A stretch of 64,000 nt of DNA from Candidatus Helarchaeota archaeon. GTDB lineage: Archaea; Asgardarchaeota; Lokiarchaeia; Helarchaeales; RDOG01. The stretch covers positions 128,001 through 192,000 of the forward strand of contig JAHPZH010000001.1 of the NCBI GenBank assembly GCA_019058315.1, read 5' to 3'. Positions 43,049 through 49,831 of the stretch are shown piece by piece. A program made the translations under genes and the position numbers. The stretch's first letter is position 1. Each line of letters begins with the position of its first letter. The notes beneath the pieces were generated by a model. The model was not told the DNA's origin, searched no databases, and saw nothing but the letters and a program-made list of their open reading frames with translations.

Positions 43049-43852
43049 TTGGATACTTGGGTAATTTTAATGCCAAATGAGATTGAAGGTAAAGACTCCA
43101 ATGAATGGTTTCTAACTGGATATTCATTTTATGAATTTGATAATTATCATTCAGCAATAGAATGTTTTGAAAAAGCGGTTAAAATAGATCCACAGAATGT
43201 TGATGCTTGGGTTAATATGGGAAGTTCTTATTTGGGTTTACAGGATTATCAAAAAGTGATCGAATGTAACGAAAAAGCAATTAATATTGATCCAAATCAT
43301 AAAATAGCATGGTACAATACGGGAAAAGCCTATTTTGGATTAGAAAATAATCAGAAATCCCTAGAATGTTATAAAAAAGCTGTTGAGATCGACCCTCAAC
43401 TAAGTCAGGCCTGGAATAACATGGGAACTATCTATGTTATTTTGGAAAAATATCAGAAAGCGATTGAATGTTTCGAAAAAGCTATCAAAATCGACTCTCG
43501 AGCTGATGCATGGAATAATATGGGTGTTATTTACCTTAATTTACAAAAATATAAAAAAGCAATTGAGTGTTATAAAGAAGTTGTTAAATTAGAGCCCCAA
43601 AATAGCAATGCATGGAGTAATATGGGAGTGGTATACCGTAGGTTAGAAGAATATCAAAAATCAATTGAGTGTTACGAAAAAGCTACTGAAATCGACCCTC
43701 TATATGCTGATCCTTGGATAAATATGGCAGTAGTGTACGAAAAATTAAAAAATTATCAAAAAGCGATTGAATGTTGCGAAAAAGCCTTTGAAATTAACCC
43801 CAATGATGAAGAGGTTTTGAAATATATTGATTTTTTGAAATCAAAACTCTGA
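43049..43852 (+). CDS. Tetratricopeptide repeat protein
   Basis: About 7 repeats AW.NMG..Y..L..YQKAIECYEKA.EIDP; likely true start ATG 43070. Confidence 0.93.
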   Translation: MDTWVILMPNEIEGKDSNEWFLTGYSFYEFDNYHSAIECFEKAVKIDPQNVDAWVNMGSSYLGLQDYQKVIECNEKAINIDPNHKIAWYNTGKAYFGLENNQKSLECYKKAVEIDPQLSQAWNNMGTIYVILEKYQKAIECFEKAIKIDSRADAWNNMGVIYLNLQKYKKAIECYKEVVKLEPQNSNAWSNMGVVYRRLEEYQKSIECYEKATEIDPLYADPWINMAVVYEKLKNYQKAIECCEKAFEINPNDEEVLKYIDFLKSKL

Positions 43853-43934
43853 TTTTTAAAACTCTAAATATTTTCTTTTTTATACATTATTTGGACTAGC
43901 AATAAATTTATTATTTTATAGATTAGGTTTACAT

Positions 43935-44510
43935 ATGCATTTAAATTTTCATGCTGCTATTGGAATTCTCATTTCTATGATATTTTCACAGTATCTATCA
44001 AATTTTCAGATCGATTTTATTATTTTCGCTTCGATGATCATCGATCTGGATTTTTTATTTTCAAAATTTGCCCAAAAACATAACCATCGAAGATTAATAA
44101 CACACACATTCTTCCCCTATATAATTATAGCGCTAATCAGTGTATTTTTAATTAATATCACCCCATTATGGTTTTATTTCTTTCTTTTTAGTATCTGCGC
44201 CATAATTCATGTTTTTGTTGATTTAATTGATTGGGGTATATCCCCGTTTCTTCCCTTTAAAAAAGATTTTGTGGGAGGTATTTTGGAACGACCTGAAACT
44301 AATGAAGATGAGCCATATTGGATTCGTCGTTGCTATTTTGTTAATAGATATTACAGCTCAAAATCTATTATTAGCATAGAACTAATTATTGGTGTTCTAG
44401 CTTTCTTATCTATACTGTATTTTGCCCCAGATTATTTCGAAATCATTACAATCTATATTTTTTGGCTAGTAATACATTTAGTTCAATATCTCTTATGTCG
44501 TAGGCGATGA
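43935..44510 (+). CDS. Membrane-bound metal-dependent hydrolase (YdjM-like)
   Basis: H...H N-terminus, IDLD, HRRLITHT, HVFVDLID motifs with TM helices. Confidence 0.8.
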   Translation: MHLNFHAAIGILISMIFSQYLSNFQIDFIIFASMIIDLDFLFSKFAQKHNHRRLITHTFFPYIIIALISVFLINITPLWFYFFLFSICAIIHVFVDLIDWGISPFLPFKKDFVGGILERPETNEDEPYWIRRCYFVNRYYSSKSIISIELIIGVLAFLSILYFAPDYFEIITIYIFWLVIHLVQYLLCRRR

Positions 44511-44535
44511 CTTAGATTTTATAATATGTATAAAA

Positions 44536-45561
44536 TTATTCTCTACCCAATTCATATCCATAAATTCCTTTATGGATAATTTCACCTTTTTTTAATTGAT
44601 CAAGACCATGAGAAATTTTCATTAAAATTTGAGGTTTTGTTAAATCTATGATATCTAGTAATTCTTTATTTTCTGATGCAAAATTTGCTAATTGTCTTCT
44701 ATTACCCTTTTTAATATGAAATAATATTCTAATTACTAACATTGAATTAAAACTGGAAATGCTTCTTAAGACATTATCTCCCGAAATTAATTGAATTTTA
44801 TCTTCTAAATTTAAATCATTAATAATTGCTTGTAATAATTGTAATTTTTCATTTTTATTTCCCCTAAGATGTTTAGTAAAAATATTCCAAAATTCTTTTT
44901 CTAATCCATACTCAATTAGCCAACTTCGAAAAATTTCTATTGAAAAATAATTTTTTATTTTACTGATATCTTTAATTGCTTCTTTTATGACTAATTTTAA
45001 CATATCTGTTTTAAATTTCATAGTTCGAAATTTATTCTGTAAAAATTCGTATATTTTAGTGTCTTTATAAGCTTCTTTTAATTTCTTACTATCGCTAATA
45101 TTTGCTTCAAATAATCTTTTCTGGATTTCAACTATTTCTAAATCATTTATTTCTTCAGGTTCAAATTTATACTCTTTTTGAATTTGTGTTCCTTTCGAAG
45201 CATATTCTCCAGATTTTAAAATATCAAATTCTCGCTGTAATAGATTAATATCTTTTGCAGTCGGAAGAGAATCCATTTTAGAGATTATTTCTTGCATATT
45301 TCGCAGTATTGCTAATTGTTGTTCTTGAAAATCTTTTTGGTCTTTTCTTAACTTTTCAATCTCTGAAAAATCCTGAACAACAGGTTTGGCTTTTTTTTTC
45401 TTACTTTTTTCCTTAACTTCTTCTATACAATCAACACAATAGAATTTCTTTCTATATTGAGTTAAATCATCTTTAGGAAATTTTTTTTCACAATTACTAC
45501 AAAAATAATCTTTAATTTCTTCTTCAGCATCTTCTTCAATATCAAATAAAAGTTTACTCAA
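44536..45561 (-). CDS. Hypothetical protein: N-terminal C4 zinc finger, coiled coil, C-terminal winged-helix-like end
   Basis: CSNC-x17-CVDC; helical middle; ISHGLDQLKKGEIIHKGIYGYEL resembles a wHTH recognition helix plus wing; TTG start 2 nt after the upstream stop. Confidence 0.7.
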   Translation of the reverse strand: MSKLLFDIEEDAEEEIKDYFCSNCEKKFPKDDLTQYRKKFYCVDCIEEVKEKSKKKKAKPVVQDFSEIEKLRKDQKDFQEQQLAILRNMQEIISKMDSLPTAKDINLLQREFDILKSGEYASKGTQIQKEYKFEPEEINDLEIVEIQKRLFEANISDSKKLKEAYKDTKIYEFLQNKFRTMKFKTDMLKLVIKEAIKDISKIKNYFSIEIFRSWLIEYGLEKEFWNIFTKHLRGNKNEKLQLLQAIINDLNLEDKIQLISGDNVLRSISSFNSMLVIRILFHIKKGNRRQLANFASENKELLDIIDLTKPQILMKISHGLDQLKKGEIIHKGIYGYELGRE

Positions 45562-45563
45562 TA

Positions 45564-45938
45564 TTATTCCTCCTCTAACCCAAATTTCTCTTCTAATTTA
45601 TCTATTAATTCTAAATCAACTGTTTCTTGAAAATGAGAGAGATATAATTTCGGGTTTTTTAATATTATTTTATGATTTTTCTTTACCCAAAGAAAAAAAT
45701 TAAATAACATTTTAAATCCATTAATTAAATCACCATTATTTTTTGTTTTCGGCTTTTCGCTCACTTCTTTTTCGGATTCATCAATATAAGCCGTTAATGC
45801 TCCTCTAATTAAGTCAGTTACATTATTAAAATTCATTTCTTCTGCTTTTTTAGTTAAAATCTCCTTGGAAATTTGAGTTCTAAATGTTATAGGCTTCTTT
45901 TTTTCTTCATCTTTTAATTTTGGTCTGCCACGATTCAT
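45564..45938 (-). CDS. Ribbon-helix-helix-like DNA-binding protein
   Basis: MNRGRPK..KKPITFR (beta ribbon) ..KEILTKKAEEM..NVTDLIRGALTAYI (two helices), typical RHH/CopG pattern. Confidence 0.7.
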   Translation of the reverse strand: MNRGRPKLKDEEKKKPITFRTQISKEILTKKAEEMNFNNVTDLIRGALTAYIDESEKEVSEKPKTKNNGDLINGFKMLFNFFLWVKKNHKIILKNPKLYLSHFQETVDLELIDKLEEKFGLEEE

Positions 45939-45949
45939 GCTATAATTAT

Positions 45950-46060
45950 TGTCTTACACATATTTAAATGTGTCTTACACAAAATATCATTTGTAATACA
46001 AAAAAATTTTTCAAAGTATCCATTTTTTAATGTAAGACGGAAATTCCTTTTTGTAAGACA
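45950..46060. promoter_or_regulatory. Array of five TGT-N3-ACA/G boxes overlapping the TATA box of the RHH gene
   Basis: TGTCTTACACA at 45950 and 45971, TGTAATACA at 45992, TGTAAGACG at 46031, TGTAAGACA at 46052; TTTAAATA (minus strand) at 45961-45968 between the first two. Confidence 0.75.
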
Positions 46061-46079
46061 AAAAATTATGTGCTAGATC

Positions 46080-46410
46080 AAGTATCAAGAAAAAATTTGA
46101 CCTCAAGAAATTTTAATTTTGATCATAATCAAAATCCTGAAAAAAATTAATTCAAAAAAAAATACATAATCCAGAAAAATTTGATCTTGAATTAAGTCTG
46201 AACTTGAAAAAAAATTTGTTAAAAAAAAAATTTTTTTAGTTTGTAATCTCAAAAAAATTTTAAATTGAAAAATCCAAATTTCAAAAATTTTATTCAAAAA
46301 AAATCTCAAAAAATCTGTCTTCAAAAAATGTTAATTATGTAAATCTTGATTTTGAAAAAACTTAGTCTCAAAAAATTTTATTTTAGAATTAAAAGATCGA
46401 AAAAAATTTC
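46080..46410. repeat. Strand-biased A-tract low-complexity segment (repeated YTCAAAAA / TGAAAAAA)
   Basis: YTCAAAAA near 46151, 46248, 46280, 46293, 46305, 46320, 46367; TGAAAAAA near 46138, 46205, 46353. Confidence 0.6.
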
Positions 46411-46530
46411 TTATGAGCATGATTCATAATTTAACCTTGATTTTATTAATTTTCGATTATATGATAAAAATAAACTGGTTTATTCTAAAAATTTTAACAA
46501 AAAAATTATGAAGATATATATATCTCCTCG

Positions 46531-46920
46531 TATTTTATTCTATTACTGATTCTCTTATTTTTGAGATTGGAATGATCCTTATGGAACATATGACGTAGCG
46601 AATAGGATTCCGGAAATTCAAGAAATCACTTTAGGATCAAAATTTTAATCTAGTGATTTAAAGGTCAATAAGTATTACATATTTATGACTTTATAAATTC
46701 CTGGATCTTATTCAGCGAGTATCGTTCGGAGGTTAAATAAGCCAAAACAAGGCTACTATGCGATTCGTTGAATAATAAAAGGATCAAATTACTAAAAAAT
46801 TAATTCTATAAATTACAATAGAGATTTTTCTAATATGGGTTAGGCTACACCATTTACCGCATTCTAAGCGCAATATAGGAAGGTTTATAAACAATGGACT
46901 GATCATAGAATACAAAATAA
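46531..46920 (+). ncRNA. Candidate large structured non-coding RNA of unknown class
   Basis: Hand-found helices: 46536-46543/46905-46912, 46573-46580/46779-46786, 46600-46618/46695-46713, 46623-46630/46652-46659, 46660-46674/46680-46692, 46709-46720/46763-46774, 46740-46743/46751-46754, 46823-46836/46873-46885; G-U pairs favour the + strand; no ORF of 60 aa or more. Confidence 0.6.
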
Positions 46921-46989
46921 ATCAAAAATGAAAAAAAAGAAATAAAATAATGAAATGTCTCTAAAAACTGAAAAATAGGTGGTGAAAAA

Positions 46990-47211
46990 TTGGTAAAAAA
47001 AATCAAAGTCAAAGTACTCTCGGTAAATGGACATGAAACTTATTCAGTCGCAATTCAAAAAATTCCTGAATTTATGGAATCACAATTAGACAATAATCAT
47101 GTTGCATATTGTGAACCTATGAAAAAGATTGTTGAAACTGAAACAGAACTAGAATATATCTTAGAAATGGTTAGTGAAATTACAATCATCCCTAAAATTC
47201 GTGGAGGTTAA
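46990..47211 (+). CDS. Ubiquitin-like (beta-grasp, ThiS/MoaD/SAMP-like) small protein ending in Gly-Gly
   Basis: 73 aa; N-terminal IKVKVLS..GHETYSV strands; C-terminal EITIIPKIRGG; TTG start after AGGTGGTGA. Confidence 0.65.
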   Translation: MVKKIKVKVLSVNGHETYSVAIQKIPEFMESQLDNNHVAYCEPMKKIVETETELEYILEMVSEITIIPKIRGG

Positions 47212-47212
47212 T

Positions 47213-47938
47213 ATGAAAAATCAGAAAAATAAACAAATTCGCTTAAAATTATCTCATGATTGGTCCAAGTTTAATGGAAAAGAATTTGAAAAAGTTAGAA
47301 ATCAACGAAATTTTCAGATTGGTGAAATTTTAAAGAAAGCAGATCAATTTTATTTGACCACAAAAAAGGGTCTTAAAGAAATTACGAAAAAATTTGCTTA
47401 TAAAAAAATAATCAAACATGAAAAGATTAACCCTGAGGAACTTACGAAAGGTTATTTTCCTAGAAGCGGATATCGAAGATCATTTGGTTCTAAAAAGAAA
47501 ATTGTGATAAAACATAACAAAACACCTGGCCTATACTGCTATGAACGCTACTTGGGAGCATCAATTAAAGCAGGAATTTCAATAACTCTCCATACAAGTA
47601 ATAAAAAAGTTAAAGATCTCATTAAAATATTTAATGCTCGAATTGGTCGTCCATATCAGCCACCAACATTTTCTCCTGAAGCTATAAACAAGGCAAAGAA
47701 AGAATTGAAAAATTTGATAAAAATTAATAATCAATTAAAAGTTGTAAATGATAATTTGGTGGTTACTAGTAAAAATGGAAGAATTTATAATATAAATCTT
47801 CTTTCTGGAGCTGTTTCATCTAAAAAGAAAAGTTATATTTGTACTTGGAGTTCAACCACAAGACTACCTTTACCTGATGAAATTATTGCTAAAGCTTTAA
47901 CTATTGCTTATAAACCAAAACAAATTAGAACGCTATAA
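47213..47938 (+). CDS. Basic hypothetical protein, translationally coupled to the ubiquitin-like gene
   Basis: ATG 47213 one base after the upstream TAA, preceded by GGAGGT; Lys-rich; C-terminal VVTSKNGRIYNINLLSG..YIC..LPLPDEIIAKAL..IRTL. Confidence 0.75.
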   Translation: MKNQKNKQIRLKLSHDWSKFNGKEFEKVRNQRNFQIGEILKKADQFYLTTKKGLKEITKKFAYKKIIKHEKINPEELTKGYFPRSGYRRSFGSKKKIVIKHNKTPGLYCYERYLGASIKAGISITLHTSNKKVKDLIKIFNARIGRPYQPPTFSPEAINKAKKELKNLIKINNQLKVVNDNLVVTSKNGRIYNINLLSGAVSSKKKSYICTWSSTTRLPLPDEIIAKALTIAYKPKQIRTL

Positions 47939-47942
47939 TTAA

Positions 47943-47974
47943 GGCGATGATGATTTTAAGCAGCGATCTGAGCT
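47943..47974 (+). ncRNA. Box C/D-type K-turn hairpin in the intergenic region
   Basis: GGC-G-ATGATGA (box C, 47947-47953) ... CTGA (box D, 47968-47971)-GCT, with flanking and internal pairing. Confidence 0.5.
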
Positions 47975-48012
47975 AAAAAGCCGGGAAATTAAGGATCTAA
48001 AGGTGTCAATAC

Positions 48013-48294
48013 ATGTCTGGCGAAGGTTGGAAGACTTACAATCGACGAATAAGATATCGAATGAATAATGCTATTAAGAGGCTCAAAAATAATATTAATT
48101 CTAATATCTTTATTGAAATTTTTTTAAAAAAACCAGTTAAACCACGAGGTTGTCCATGTTGTGCTTATTCAAAAAAACATTATATGTCCCCAGTTAGAAT
48201 TAACCATCCAAAGAAGAATAAACACCATAACAGCACTCTAATGCGAAATTCCTATCAAATACTTGCTAAATTAAAAAAATCTACAAGAATTTGA
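48013..48294 (+). CDS. Small basic protein with CPCC and HPKKNKHHN motifs
   Basis: 93 aa, R/K rich, AAGGTG RBS; paralog of the next ORF. Confidence 0.65.
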   Translation: MSGEGWKTYNRRIRYRMNNAIKRLKNNINSNIFIEIFLKKPVKPRGCPCCAYSKKHYMSPVRINHPKKNKHHNSTLMRNSYQILAKLKKSTRI

Positions 48295-48300
48295 AGTCAA

Positions 48301-48549
48301 ATGTATATAAAGTTTAAAAATCGATTCAAAAGAAGACAAATAAAAGGCTTACGTGCTAGAATTAGGTCAGATTTAACCCATAAAAAATTTGATGATGCTA
48401 ATAATTGGTTCTTACAATTACATTATAGATACTACTATTATCATGCTCGTAGATCCCATCCAAAACATAATCTTCATCATAATAATACAAGAAATCGTTA
48501 TTTTATACGAAAATTAAGGGTCGTAAAAGCCTTTAAACAAAAATTTTAA
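48301..48549 (+). CDS. Small basic protein with HPKHNLHHN motif
   Basis: 82 aa, R/K/H rich; shares a motif with the upstream ORF and is in the same frame. Confidence 0.65.
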   Translation: MYIKFKNRFKRRQIKGLRARIRSDLTHKKFDDANNWFLQLHYRYYYYHARRSHPKHNLHHNNTRNRYFIRKLRVVKAFKQKF

Positions 48550-48568
48550 AGAAAACTCTCCTTTTAAC

Positions 48569-49831
48569 TTAGCGTTCTGGGTGTTGTATACTTTTTGGAA
48601 TCCATTGTATTTCAGCGCCCCGTTTTTTTAATTTTTTAACCACTTTCTTAGTTGGGTTGCCCTGTTTTTTCAATGTTTCTGTTAAAGTAATATTTTTTAA
48701 CAATTCGCACTCCAATAATGATTCGGGGAGGACAATATTTTCATTTTCTTGAAGATTTAATCTCTTTAATGATGATATTTTACCGATTGAGTAAGGTAAT
48801 GTGTTTAAAGCACAATTACTTGCATCTAATTCTTCAAGTTGAGTTAATGTGCCTATTTCAGCTGGTAATTTCTTAATTGGGTTTTCTCCTACATTAAGAG
48901 ATTTAAGAGATGAAAGTGAGCATAAAGATTCTGGAAGTGTTGATAAATTATTTCTCCAAACTCCAAGAACTCTTAAAGATTTTAAATTTCCGATTGATTC
49001 TGGGAGCTGGGAAATCGAATTATCATATAAATTAAGTTCTTCCAAAGATTTCAAATTTCCAATACAAGCCGGAACGTTTTTAATTTGATTATTGCTTAGC
49101 TGGAGATGAGTTAAATTCTTTAAAGAACAGAGCCAATTTGGTATTTCTTCAATTCCTCCTACTTTCACGCTAGATCCTGGAGGGTCTGTACGAGGTTCTG
49201 GCCATTCCTCCCTCGCGTTATCATTGGCATAAAGTTGTTCTAATTCTTTTAATCCGCTTAACACTTCTGGGAGCTTTGTAAATCTATTACCACTCATCCA
49301 TAATATCTTCAAAGAAGTTAGATTACTGAAGCTAGGTGGAAGATCTGATAATTCCATTTCATAAGGACTACCTGTTAAATATAACTCTTCAAGATTTACA
49401 AGGGCATCTAATGAATCGGGTATTTCTTTTAATTGATTTCCTCCTAAATGGCATCTCCGAAGTGAACTCAGCGAAGTAAACATAGCTTTTGGTATATTAT
49501 TTAATTGATTATTATGAAGATAAAGATCTTCAAGATTTGAGAGTGAACCTAAAGATGTGGGAATATTTTTTAATTGACCTTCATAAACCCAAAGTGTTTT
49601 AAGAAATTTGAGAAACCCAATGGTATCTGGCAATGATTTTAAATTAAATTTATGGAGTCCAAGACCTATGACATGATTATCTTCGGCAGCAAACCCGACT
49701 GTGTCGTGTTCAATAGAATTTACAAGTAAAAGTCTTCTATTTAATTTTTTTTCTATGGTTCTAAGAACTTGTGCTTCGATTCGAGGGAGTTCAGCTTTAT
49801 TAAAATTAATAAGTTCAGATTCCATATACAA
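48569..49831 (-). CDS. Leucine-rich repeat protein
   Basis: About 13 repeats of LxxLxLxxNxLxxLPxSIGxL. Confidence 0.93.
   Translation of the reverse strand: MYMESELINFNKAELPRIEAQVLRTIEKKLNRRLLLVNSIEHDTVGFAAEDNHVIGLGLHKFNLKSLPDTIGFLKFLKTLWVYEGQLKNIPTSLGSLSNLEDLYLHNNQLNNIPKAMFTSLSSLRRCHLGGNQLKEIPDSLDALVNLEELYLTGSPYEMELSDLPPSFSNLTSLKILWMSGNRFTKLPEVLSGLKELEQLYANDNAREEWPEPRTDPPGSSVKVGGIEEIPNWLCSLKNLTHLQLSNNQIKNVPACIGNLKSLEELNLYDNSISQLPESIGNLKSLRVLGVWRNNLSTLPESLCSLSSLKSLNVGENPIKKLPAEIGTLTQLEELDASNCALNTLPYSIGKISSLKRLNLQENENIVLPESLLECELLKNITLTETLKKQGNPTKKVVKKLKKRGAEIQWIPKSIQHPER

Follow-up and report, generated by a model that had tools for sequence, protein, structure and literature searches.

A two-gene module of a ubiquitin-like protein and a candidate E2-like partner in Asgard archaea

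A 64,000-nucleotide stretch of the genome of Candidatus Helarchaeota archaeon (assembly GCA_019058315.1, contig JAHPZH010000001.1, positions 128,001 to 192,000 of the forward strand; hereafter the window) holds a 4-kb block of six uncharacterised genes at positions 44536 to 48549. Two directly coupled genes in this block encode a 73-amino-acid (aa) ubiquitin-like protein (Ubl) and a 241-aa partner, which we call E2L for its likeness to E2 ubiquitin-conjugating enzymes. The original prediction had taken the block as one self-contained six-gene locus. Our comparisons show instead that the block is not one unit and that its conserved core is this two-gene module. Distant relatives keep only the Ubl-E2L pair, a closer one (locus L011) has the pair and the ~390-nucleotide (nt) non-coding element but lacks the ribbon-helix-helix (RHH)/zinc-finger (ZnF) arm, the operators and the A-rich array, and relatives do not have the 93-aa gene. 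The RHH/ZnF arm, the ~390-nt element, the kink-turn (K-turn) hairpin and the small basic protein occur in the closest relatives only. In our assessment there is an even chance that the pair is a Ubl-E2-type module that borrows its E1 in trans and would carry the Ubl as a thioester on Cys210 of E2L. This explanation is based on fold models, an invariant Gly-Gly (GG) and an invariant cysteine, obligate adjacency of the two genes, a predicted interface and gene context; from these we infer the activation in trans, the thioester, the targets and all regulatory roles. The pair belongs to no described family and is restricted to Asgard archaea, while a Ubl with an E2-fold partner is, as a kind, already known. 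A literature search returned no description of the pair.

The proposal that the 73-aa protein is ubiquitin-like is borne out by its model and its C-terminus. The AlphaFold2 (AF2) model has a predicted local distance difference test (pLDDT) score of 86.8 and the bbabbab topology of the beta-grasp fold. Its fold matches are all beta-grasp proteins (PB1, Z 6.0; SUMO1, 5.3; MoaD, 5.3; TtuB, 5.2), and Foldseek returned probabilities of 0.96-0.99, but with E about 6e-3. Across the aligned sequences, with identity down to 17%, the GG is invariant in 15 of 15 and, apart from it, only L10 and G14 are invariant; the tail of the family follows the pattern P-x-[VI]-x-G-G. None of the 15 members matches a Pfam Ubl family (ThiS, ubiquitin and others) at E <= 0.1, and NCBIfam contains no match for the Ubl. 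Since the E2L ATG lies 1 nt past the Ubl stop and a GGAGGT falls within the final Ubl codons, the GG ending was considered as a side effect of the ribosome-binding site. This was ruled out, because GG persists where the genes are uncoupled: at locus L038 it is kept even though the Ubl and E2L genes are 104 nt apart. In two of the 15 members, 12 aa follow the GG. By analogy with Ubl precursors, this extension suggests processing like that of a modifier.

The 241-aa partner requires a revision of the view that no E2 is recognisable in the block, given that its C-terminal domain models as a UBC/UEV/RWD domain with an invariant cysteine at the E2 position. In an alignment of 28 family members, two parts are conserved, an N-terminal one (~1-70) and a C-terminal one (~155-241), and the invariant residues are G37, C210, D222, K227, L229 and P235. 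The last 24 residues are identical in close relatives despite differing synonymous sites, which argues that selection acts on the C-terminal peptide. The AF2 model (pLDDT 83.6) consists of a small beta-barrel at ~8-57, a hairpin and helix at ~96-144, and a C-terminal domain to which DSSP assigns a helix (155-171), four strands (175-203), a short strand bearing Cys210 and a second helix (220-233). As modelled, this topology fits that of a minimal UBC core. Cys210, invariant in all 28 sequences, follows strand 201-203 by 7 residues and precedes helix 220-233 by 10, and in the model it sits where E2s carry their catalytic cysteine, between strand 4 and helix 2.

A wide fold search with VIA-align, which covered 48,161 chains and is independent of Foldseek, is consistent with this assignment. 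Among the 50 matches listed, most cover E2L ~146-241 and are UBC, UEV or RWD domains with Z values of 3.6-4.9. The highest are the VPS37A UEVL domain (Z 4.9), FANCL (4.8), two RWD domains (4.8 and 4.7) and the Vps23 UEV domain (4.6), and the E2s include Ubc9 (4.5) and E2S (4.5). UBE2F, Ube2K, Ube2W, Ubc13, UBE2O, UFC1 and Atg10 are also present, together with a bacterial BubCD-BubB-BubA entry (Z 3.6). The other matches concern either the barrel at the N-terminus, which resembles S4e (Z 4.3), or the middle domain, which resembles chemokines. These Z values are modest and not convincing alone; the weight comes from three lines combined, as the E2-like reading follows from the uniform fold list, the invariant cysteine at the E2 position and the obligate pairing with a GG-ended beta-grasp gene. 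Compared with known E2s, E2L is predicted to have the same core of helix, four-strand meander, cysteine loop and helix, and to bind a GG-ended beta-grasp protein through the cysteine loop and the following helix. It differs from them in lacking helices 3 and 4 as well as sequence similarity and the His-Pro-Asn (HPN) motif, both considered below, and in adding an N-terminal beta-barrel and a variable middle domain. Pfam UQ_con has no match in the E2L family. Weak matches to DUF7737 occur in 7 of the 28 members (best E 0.009), and at most hint at a relation to another uncharacterised domain; the literature mentions DUF7737 only as co-occurring with DUF4132. An Atlas shape search with E2L gave only template modelling (TM) scores of 0.40 or less, DUF4132/DUF7737 proteins among them, and an ESM Atlas feature search with E2L, with the ZnF protein and with the 82-aa protein gave no usable match.

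Modelling of the two proteins together supports the proposal that they are functionally coupled. The complex of the E2L C-terminal domain and the Ubl scores 0.77, against 0.01 for the best control, and so passes a mark that is reached by solved complexes in 58 of 80 cases and by mismatched pairs in 2 of 110. In three runs at least 91% of the contacts agree, with a partner pLDDT of at least 85. The predicted interface joins E2L 209-219 and 222-241 to Ubl 67-73 through about 95-100 contacts and buries the tail. Placement of the Ubl tail on the cysteine loop and C-terminal helix of E2L in these models supports binding.

The distribution of the pair provides the third line. A profile of the E2L family, run against 1.8 billion representatives, found 45 cluster representatives, and the named members are all from Asgard archaea (metagenome-assembled genomes, MAGs, of Helarchaeota, Promethearchaeota and Freyrarchaeum). 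In a six-frame survey of the phylum, the family was present in 11 of 400 genomes; it occurs in four of the 32 other families, and the only other genome in the window's family lacks it. A scan of IMG/VR and viral contigs with the E2L alignment found no relative. At all 17 distinct loci with upstream DNA, a gene of 71-98 aa stands directly upstream of E2L, and it ends in GG wherever its sequence was read. This adjacency holds across unrelated neighbourhoods. The original prediction had asked for co-occurrence in other genomes, and here the outcome is divided: the Ubl and its partner do recur together in Asgard archaea, but the upstream non-coding element is undetected at the distant loci. The host genome (5.8 Mb, ~30% GC, 12 contigs) encodes eight ThiF-type E1-like genes and five canonical E2s outside the locus, as well as eight JAB matches, six of them above Pfam's cut-off, all likewise outside it.

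Several members of the family depart from the arrangement in the window. At L043, L044 and L051 (genomes G110 and G111) the Ubl reading frame runs 12 residues past the GG, and the E2L genes lack the N-terminal barrel, encode 176-177 aa and stand as two tandem copies. At L046-L048 (G003-G005) a ~280-aa protein begins with the E2-like domain and continues into an unrelated C-terminal part, and its gene still directly follows a 75-aa GG-ended gene. A second Ubl-E2L pair of the relative that carries L008 lies in the same assembly (L054:527-8604, a Helarchaeota MAG); its E2L has 280 aa, with an internal duplicate of the C-terminal ...AKxLTIAYKP motif, and a type III CRISPR-Cas cluster with Cas6, three RAMP genes and Cas10 stands 1.3 kb away from the pair. 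At L056 an integrase lies 1.3 kb from the pair. In another family the third gene encodes an 82-aa 2x[4Fe-4S] ferredoxin-like protein and is followed by a homocitrate-synthase-like gene.

Among known systems, the Bub (6E) and Bil operons and CBASS (cyclic-oligonucleotide-based antiphage signalling system) Cap2/Cap3 encode Ubl or target, E1, E2 and JAB together (Bub: PMC10557695), and Ubl structures have been described for bacterial Bub/Bil-type systems (PMC11601603). The Asgard pair resembles these systems in the direct coupling of a Ubl gene to an E2-like gene and in its patchy, accessory distribution, and the Bub complex is among the E2L fold matches given above. It differs in that E1 and JAB are encoded in cis there, whereas neither stands beside the Ubl-E2L pair in ~17 loci. 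A Bub-like cluster (L063, G000:C3:100000-107100) is present on the same contig, ~70 kb upstream of the locus, and comprises a 230-aa Ubl-E2 fusion, a 102-aa protein ending ...PIGGH, a 120-aa E2-like protein, a JAB protein and a ThiF-type E1. Its Ubl and E2 have no profile similarity to the Ubl-E2L pair in hhalign.

The remaining features of the block are listed in Table 1. All six open reading frames (ORFs) that had been proposed are present at their coordinates, the 1,051 nt at 45939-46989 are the longest ORF-free stretch in the window, and the operator array, the A-rich segment and the box C/D-like hairpin lie where they had been placed. For all six proteins, matches in Pfam, PHROGs, NCBIfam and PADLOC stay below the curated cut-offs.

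Table 1. Features of the block, in window coordinates
Feature	Position	Strand	Description
341-aa protein with N-terminal CxxC-x17-CxxC zinc ribbon	44536..45561	-	ORF; weak zinc-ribbon matches only
RHH-like protein, 124 aa	45564..45938	-	Weak RHH_1 match
Putative operator array	45950..46060		Two direct TGTCTTACAC, one degenerate and two inverted TGTAAGAC boxes
A-rich degenerate tandem array	46080..46400		Unit of ~16-17 nt, A6-7 plus TTGATC-like
Conserved non-coding element	46531..46920	+	Candidate structured leader or non-coding RNA of the Ubl operon; conservation beyond coding DNA
Ubl, 73 aa, ending IRGG	46990..47211	+	ORF; beta-grasp model; C-terminal Gly-Gly
E2L, 241 aa	47213..47938	+	N-terminal beta-barrel ~5-62; variable middle ~64-145; UBC/UEV/RWD-like ~151-241
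Box C/D-like K-turn hairpin	47943..47974	+	GAUGAUGA ... CUGA with closing stem, between the E2L and basic-protein genes
Basic protein, 93 aa	48013..48294	+	Copy of the next gene
Very basic protein, 82 aa	48301..48549	+	Third operon gene in this lineage

The minus-strand arm of the block has few relatives. The 341-aa protein has only two homologues among 5.8 billion proteins, both beside an RHH gene and the same spacer; in every case its gene comes after the RHH gene. The 124-aa protein matches Pfam RHH_1 at E 0.0026 (18.1 bits versus a cut-off of 20.5) and PHROG 876, a 'transcriptional repressor', at E 0.0019, and its N-terminal strand-helix-helix segment is conserved in two orthologues. Two direct boxes, TGTCTTACAC at 45950 and 45971, flank a TATA-like ATATTTAAAT that lies 22-31 nt from the RHH ATG; the boxes are followed by a degenerate box, TGTAATACA, at 45992 and by the inverted boxes TGTAAGAC at 46031 and 46052. 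These putative RHH operators (TGTCTTACA boxes) are all conserved in L014 and L015 and appear to lie over the RHH gene's own promoter. The 124-aa protein is a probable autorepressor, and the arm and operators look like an autoregulated unit, in line with the RHH control that had been proposed. The A-rich array differs in length between relatives and is absent from L011; in L014 it has a 65-66-nt higher-order unit and contains an assembly gap.

The ~390-nt element is under selection: in L015 and L012 its conservation exceeds that of the coding DNA around it, and no ORF inside it is conserved. For its plus strand the folding energy is -83.8 kcal/mol (z -2.65), a value matched by 2 of 100 shuffles, while the minus strand gives z -0.95. 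RNAalifold predicts 83 pairs over five sequences, 14 of them with a double change, yet the covariation term is +1.96, which gives no net support, and the broken pairs in L012 cancel the double changes. One distal stem, for example, goes from GAU/AUC to UAU/AUA when L015 is compared with the window. Part of the element may be promoter DNA, since it contains a conserved TATA-like TTTATAAA (46884-46891). An Rfam search of 43500-49500 at E <= 1 returned a chance U2 match only (23.3 bits versus a cut-off of 46); this U2 snRNA match, at 47879-47992 on the minus strand with E 0.14, overlaps the end of E2L and the K-turn hairpin. The genome contains one copy of the element, and searches with nhmmer and a covariance model of its core found none at distant Ubl-E2L loci. 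An exact scan of genome, metagenome and viral collections with its invariant 19-mer gave short chance matches only. A TTAGGATCGAA motif in common with another family's upstream region stands in a different stem context and was taken as unproven. We read the element as a conserved leader with a cis-regulatory role, or else as a small RNA gene, that belongs to a single shallow clade and whose structure is weakly supported.

Downstream of E2L, the K-turn hairpin is conserved in the window, L008, L011 and L012, degenerate (CCGA) in L013 and absent at distant loci. It resembles archaeal L7Ae-bound box C/D K-turns in its box C (RUGAUGA), box D (CUGA), short stem and location between operon genes. 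It differs from them in that its motif occurs in the closest relatives only and its boxes are ~14 nt apart, which leaves no room for guide sequences. The two basic proteins that follow are paralogous, as claimed, having an HPKxNxHHN motif in common and 29% identity. Orthologues of the 82-aa protein, 46-73% identical to it, occur in L008, L011 and L012, and L038 has a likely relative. Window positions 47980-48272, most of the 93-aa gene, have no counterpart in L008 or L011, where the alignments join across, and L012 has a single basic gene; the 93-aa gene is therefore an extra copy. At 48292-48303 the 93-aa ORF stops with TGA and the 82-aa ORF starts two codons on in the same frame. A read-through fusion of the two is not a conserved feature, given that relatives lack the 93-aa copy.

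Comparison of the block with its close relatives separates these parts. There are four close E2L homologues, with 50-82% identity. L014 and L008 overlap at 100% identity and come from one relative, in which the complete block is present at 83-89% nucleotide identity with unchanged neighbours on both sides; the common flanks are a YdjM-family gene on one side and leucine-rich-repeat and coenzyme A-transferase genes on the other. In L015 the alignment runs through both genes of the RHH/ZnF arm and the whole spacer, at 73%. The right arm of L011 is 82-85% identical, and its homology starts exactly at window position 46531, upstream of which L011 has a gene for an unrelated 461-aa repeat protein. 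It follows that the rest of the block can occur without the RHH/ZnF arm, operators and A-rich array. The 461-aa gene was considered as a link to the Bub-like cluster and set aside, since its 43% identity to a similar gene there marks it as a paralogue. Where homology to the window ends, L011:1481-1579 is a tandem 74% duplicate of the element's first ~100 nt. In L012, and there only, the unit is bracketed by inverted copies of an E2L 3' segment: an inverted fragment of the E2L 3' end (L012:119-168; 50 nt at 76%) precedes the Ubl gene by ~800 nt and may be the remnant of a second copy or the trace of a rearrangement. A synteny comparison also took in three genomes of the order and the only other one of the family, in which the flanks are on different contigs and too divergent. 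Four public DNA runs contain only close strains at the locus, at low depth.

If E2L is a conjugating enzyme, an E1-type adenylating enzyme encoded elsewhere would activate the Gly-Gly tail of the Ubl, the activated tail would be passed as a thioester to Cys210, and transfer would follow to targets selected by the N-terminal beta-barrel. In the lineage of the window, the target may be the very basic third protein. Local control could be layered, with the RHH repressor and its own operators, the A-rich array, the ~390-nt leader and the K-turn before the third gene. Several results weigh against this mechanism. The best E2L fold Z, 4.9, is below the 7-8 that unrelated models often reach, Foldseek against the PDB found no match to the 241-aa model at E <= 0.001, and PDB profile searches found none for E2L. 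In hhalign, the C-terminal domain of E2L reaches 0.2% against three of the genome's own canonical E2s and 0.2-0.3% when the Bub-like E2 is included. The family alignment contains no conserved HPN motif upstream of the cysteine, non-catalytic UEV and RWD domains are among the top fold matches, and no E1, JAB or E3 gene stands beside the pair in any of the ~17 loci examined. The complex model fits a thioester-ready pose and a stable non-covalent heterodimer alike. No public RNA run is listed with the region, which has no bearing on expression. The HPN motif is also absent from some prokaryotic E2-like families.

Some of this evidence would also suit a stable non-covalent heterodimer or a carrier-plus-synthase pair, an alternative to a conjugation enzyme that we regard as doubtful, if a serious minority possibility. 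The C-terminal domain would then be a UEV/RWD-type binder or a pocket for the tail, as MoaE is for MoaD; sulfur could travel on the Ubl as a thiocarboxylate, and Cys210 would have a structural role or serve as a persulfide site. Non-catalytic domains as the best fold matches, the missing HPN motif, the lack of E1, JAB and E3 in cis and the large predicted interface that buries the tail all agree with such a pair. The Ubl itself, a ~70-aa beta-grasp protein with its P-x-[VI]-x-G-G tail, resembles ThiS, MoaD, SAMP, TtuB and Urm1; MoaD and TtuB are among its fold matches (Z 5.2-5.3), and the E1 of sulfur carriers is usually encoded elsewhere, as it would be here. The family with the ferredoxin-like third gene and the homocitrate-synthase-like gene adds a hint of metabolism. 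However, an invariant cysteine at the E2 position in 28 sequences is unexpected for a pure binding domain, and the two Ubls with an extension after the GG suggest modifier-like processing. The Ubl also lacks a Pfam ThiS match, and its partner is UBC-like rather than MoaE-, ThiG-, TtuA- or E1-like, with no MoaE-, ThiG- or TtuA-like fold among the E2L matches listed.

Two further explanations concern the block more than the pair. That the ~390-nt RNA, the basic proteins (241, 93 and 82 aa) and the K-turn form a ribonucleoprotein is very improbable in our view. The element is conserved beyond coding DNA without a conserved ORF, its plus strand is more stable than shuffled sequence and a few of its stems have compensatory changes, the K-turn motif is conserved, the proteins are very basic, and the N-terminal barrel of E2L weakly resembles ribosomal protein S4e, all of which would fit. 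But net covariation over the five sequences is nil, no Rfam family is matched, the TATA-like box makes part of the element possible promoter DNA, and element, K-turn and basic protein are confined to one shallow clade whereas the Ubl-E2L pair ranges much more widely. A domesticated mobile element or defence island is also unlikely, though slightly less so, and is compatible with the E2-type module as its biological role. On this account the RHH/ZnF arm and the array would be a remnant of plasmid-type partition or replication control, and the pair would be cargo, for example for antiviral tagging as in Bil or Bub. ParR/ParG-type centromeres have an RHH gene beside tandem repeats, and the RHH gene next to the tandem repeat array resembles this arrangement. 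The patchy distribution of the pair, its varied contexts, including the CRISPR-Cas cluster at L054 and the integrase at L056, and a GC content that falls to 23-26% across the 4-kb block point in the same direction. Against it, the block is syntenic between the same flanks in the relative at 83-89% identity, and no second copy of any block gene or spacer was found in the host genome. The block contains no integrase, transposase or terminal repeats, and the searches yielded no PADLOC or PHROG match above cut-off, no IMG/VR relative and no NTPase partition partner.

No known group is closer to eukaryotes than the Asgard archaea, whose genomes already encode eukaryote-like sets of E1, E2 and RING proteins. 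If the E2-type module is real, these organisms would have a second pair of Ubl and E2-like protein, one without sequence relatives, confined to the phylum and always without an E1 of its own. In its fullest form, the proposal would be of an Asgard-restricted modifier with a one-cysteine E2-type enzyme and no dedicated E1, JAB or E3, dependent on a borrowed E1 of housekeeping or eukaryote-like type or on different chemistry, to which one lineage has added a new, structured ~390-nt leader RNA and L7Ae-type K-turn control, the whole an independent offshoot of the UBC fold in the archaea nearest to eukaryotes; we offer this extended version tentatively and consider it unlikely as it stands. To our knowledge, few cis-regulatory RNAs are known in Asgard archaea, and the element and the K-turn would be of interest by themselves if transcripts were found. 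The pair offers a simple two-protein system for studying E2-Ubl recognition, and, if our interpretation is correct, it would represent a new branch in the evolution of the UBC fold and of tagging by Ubls.

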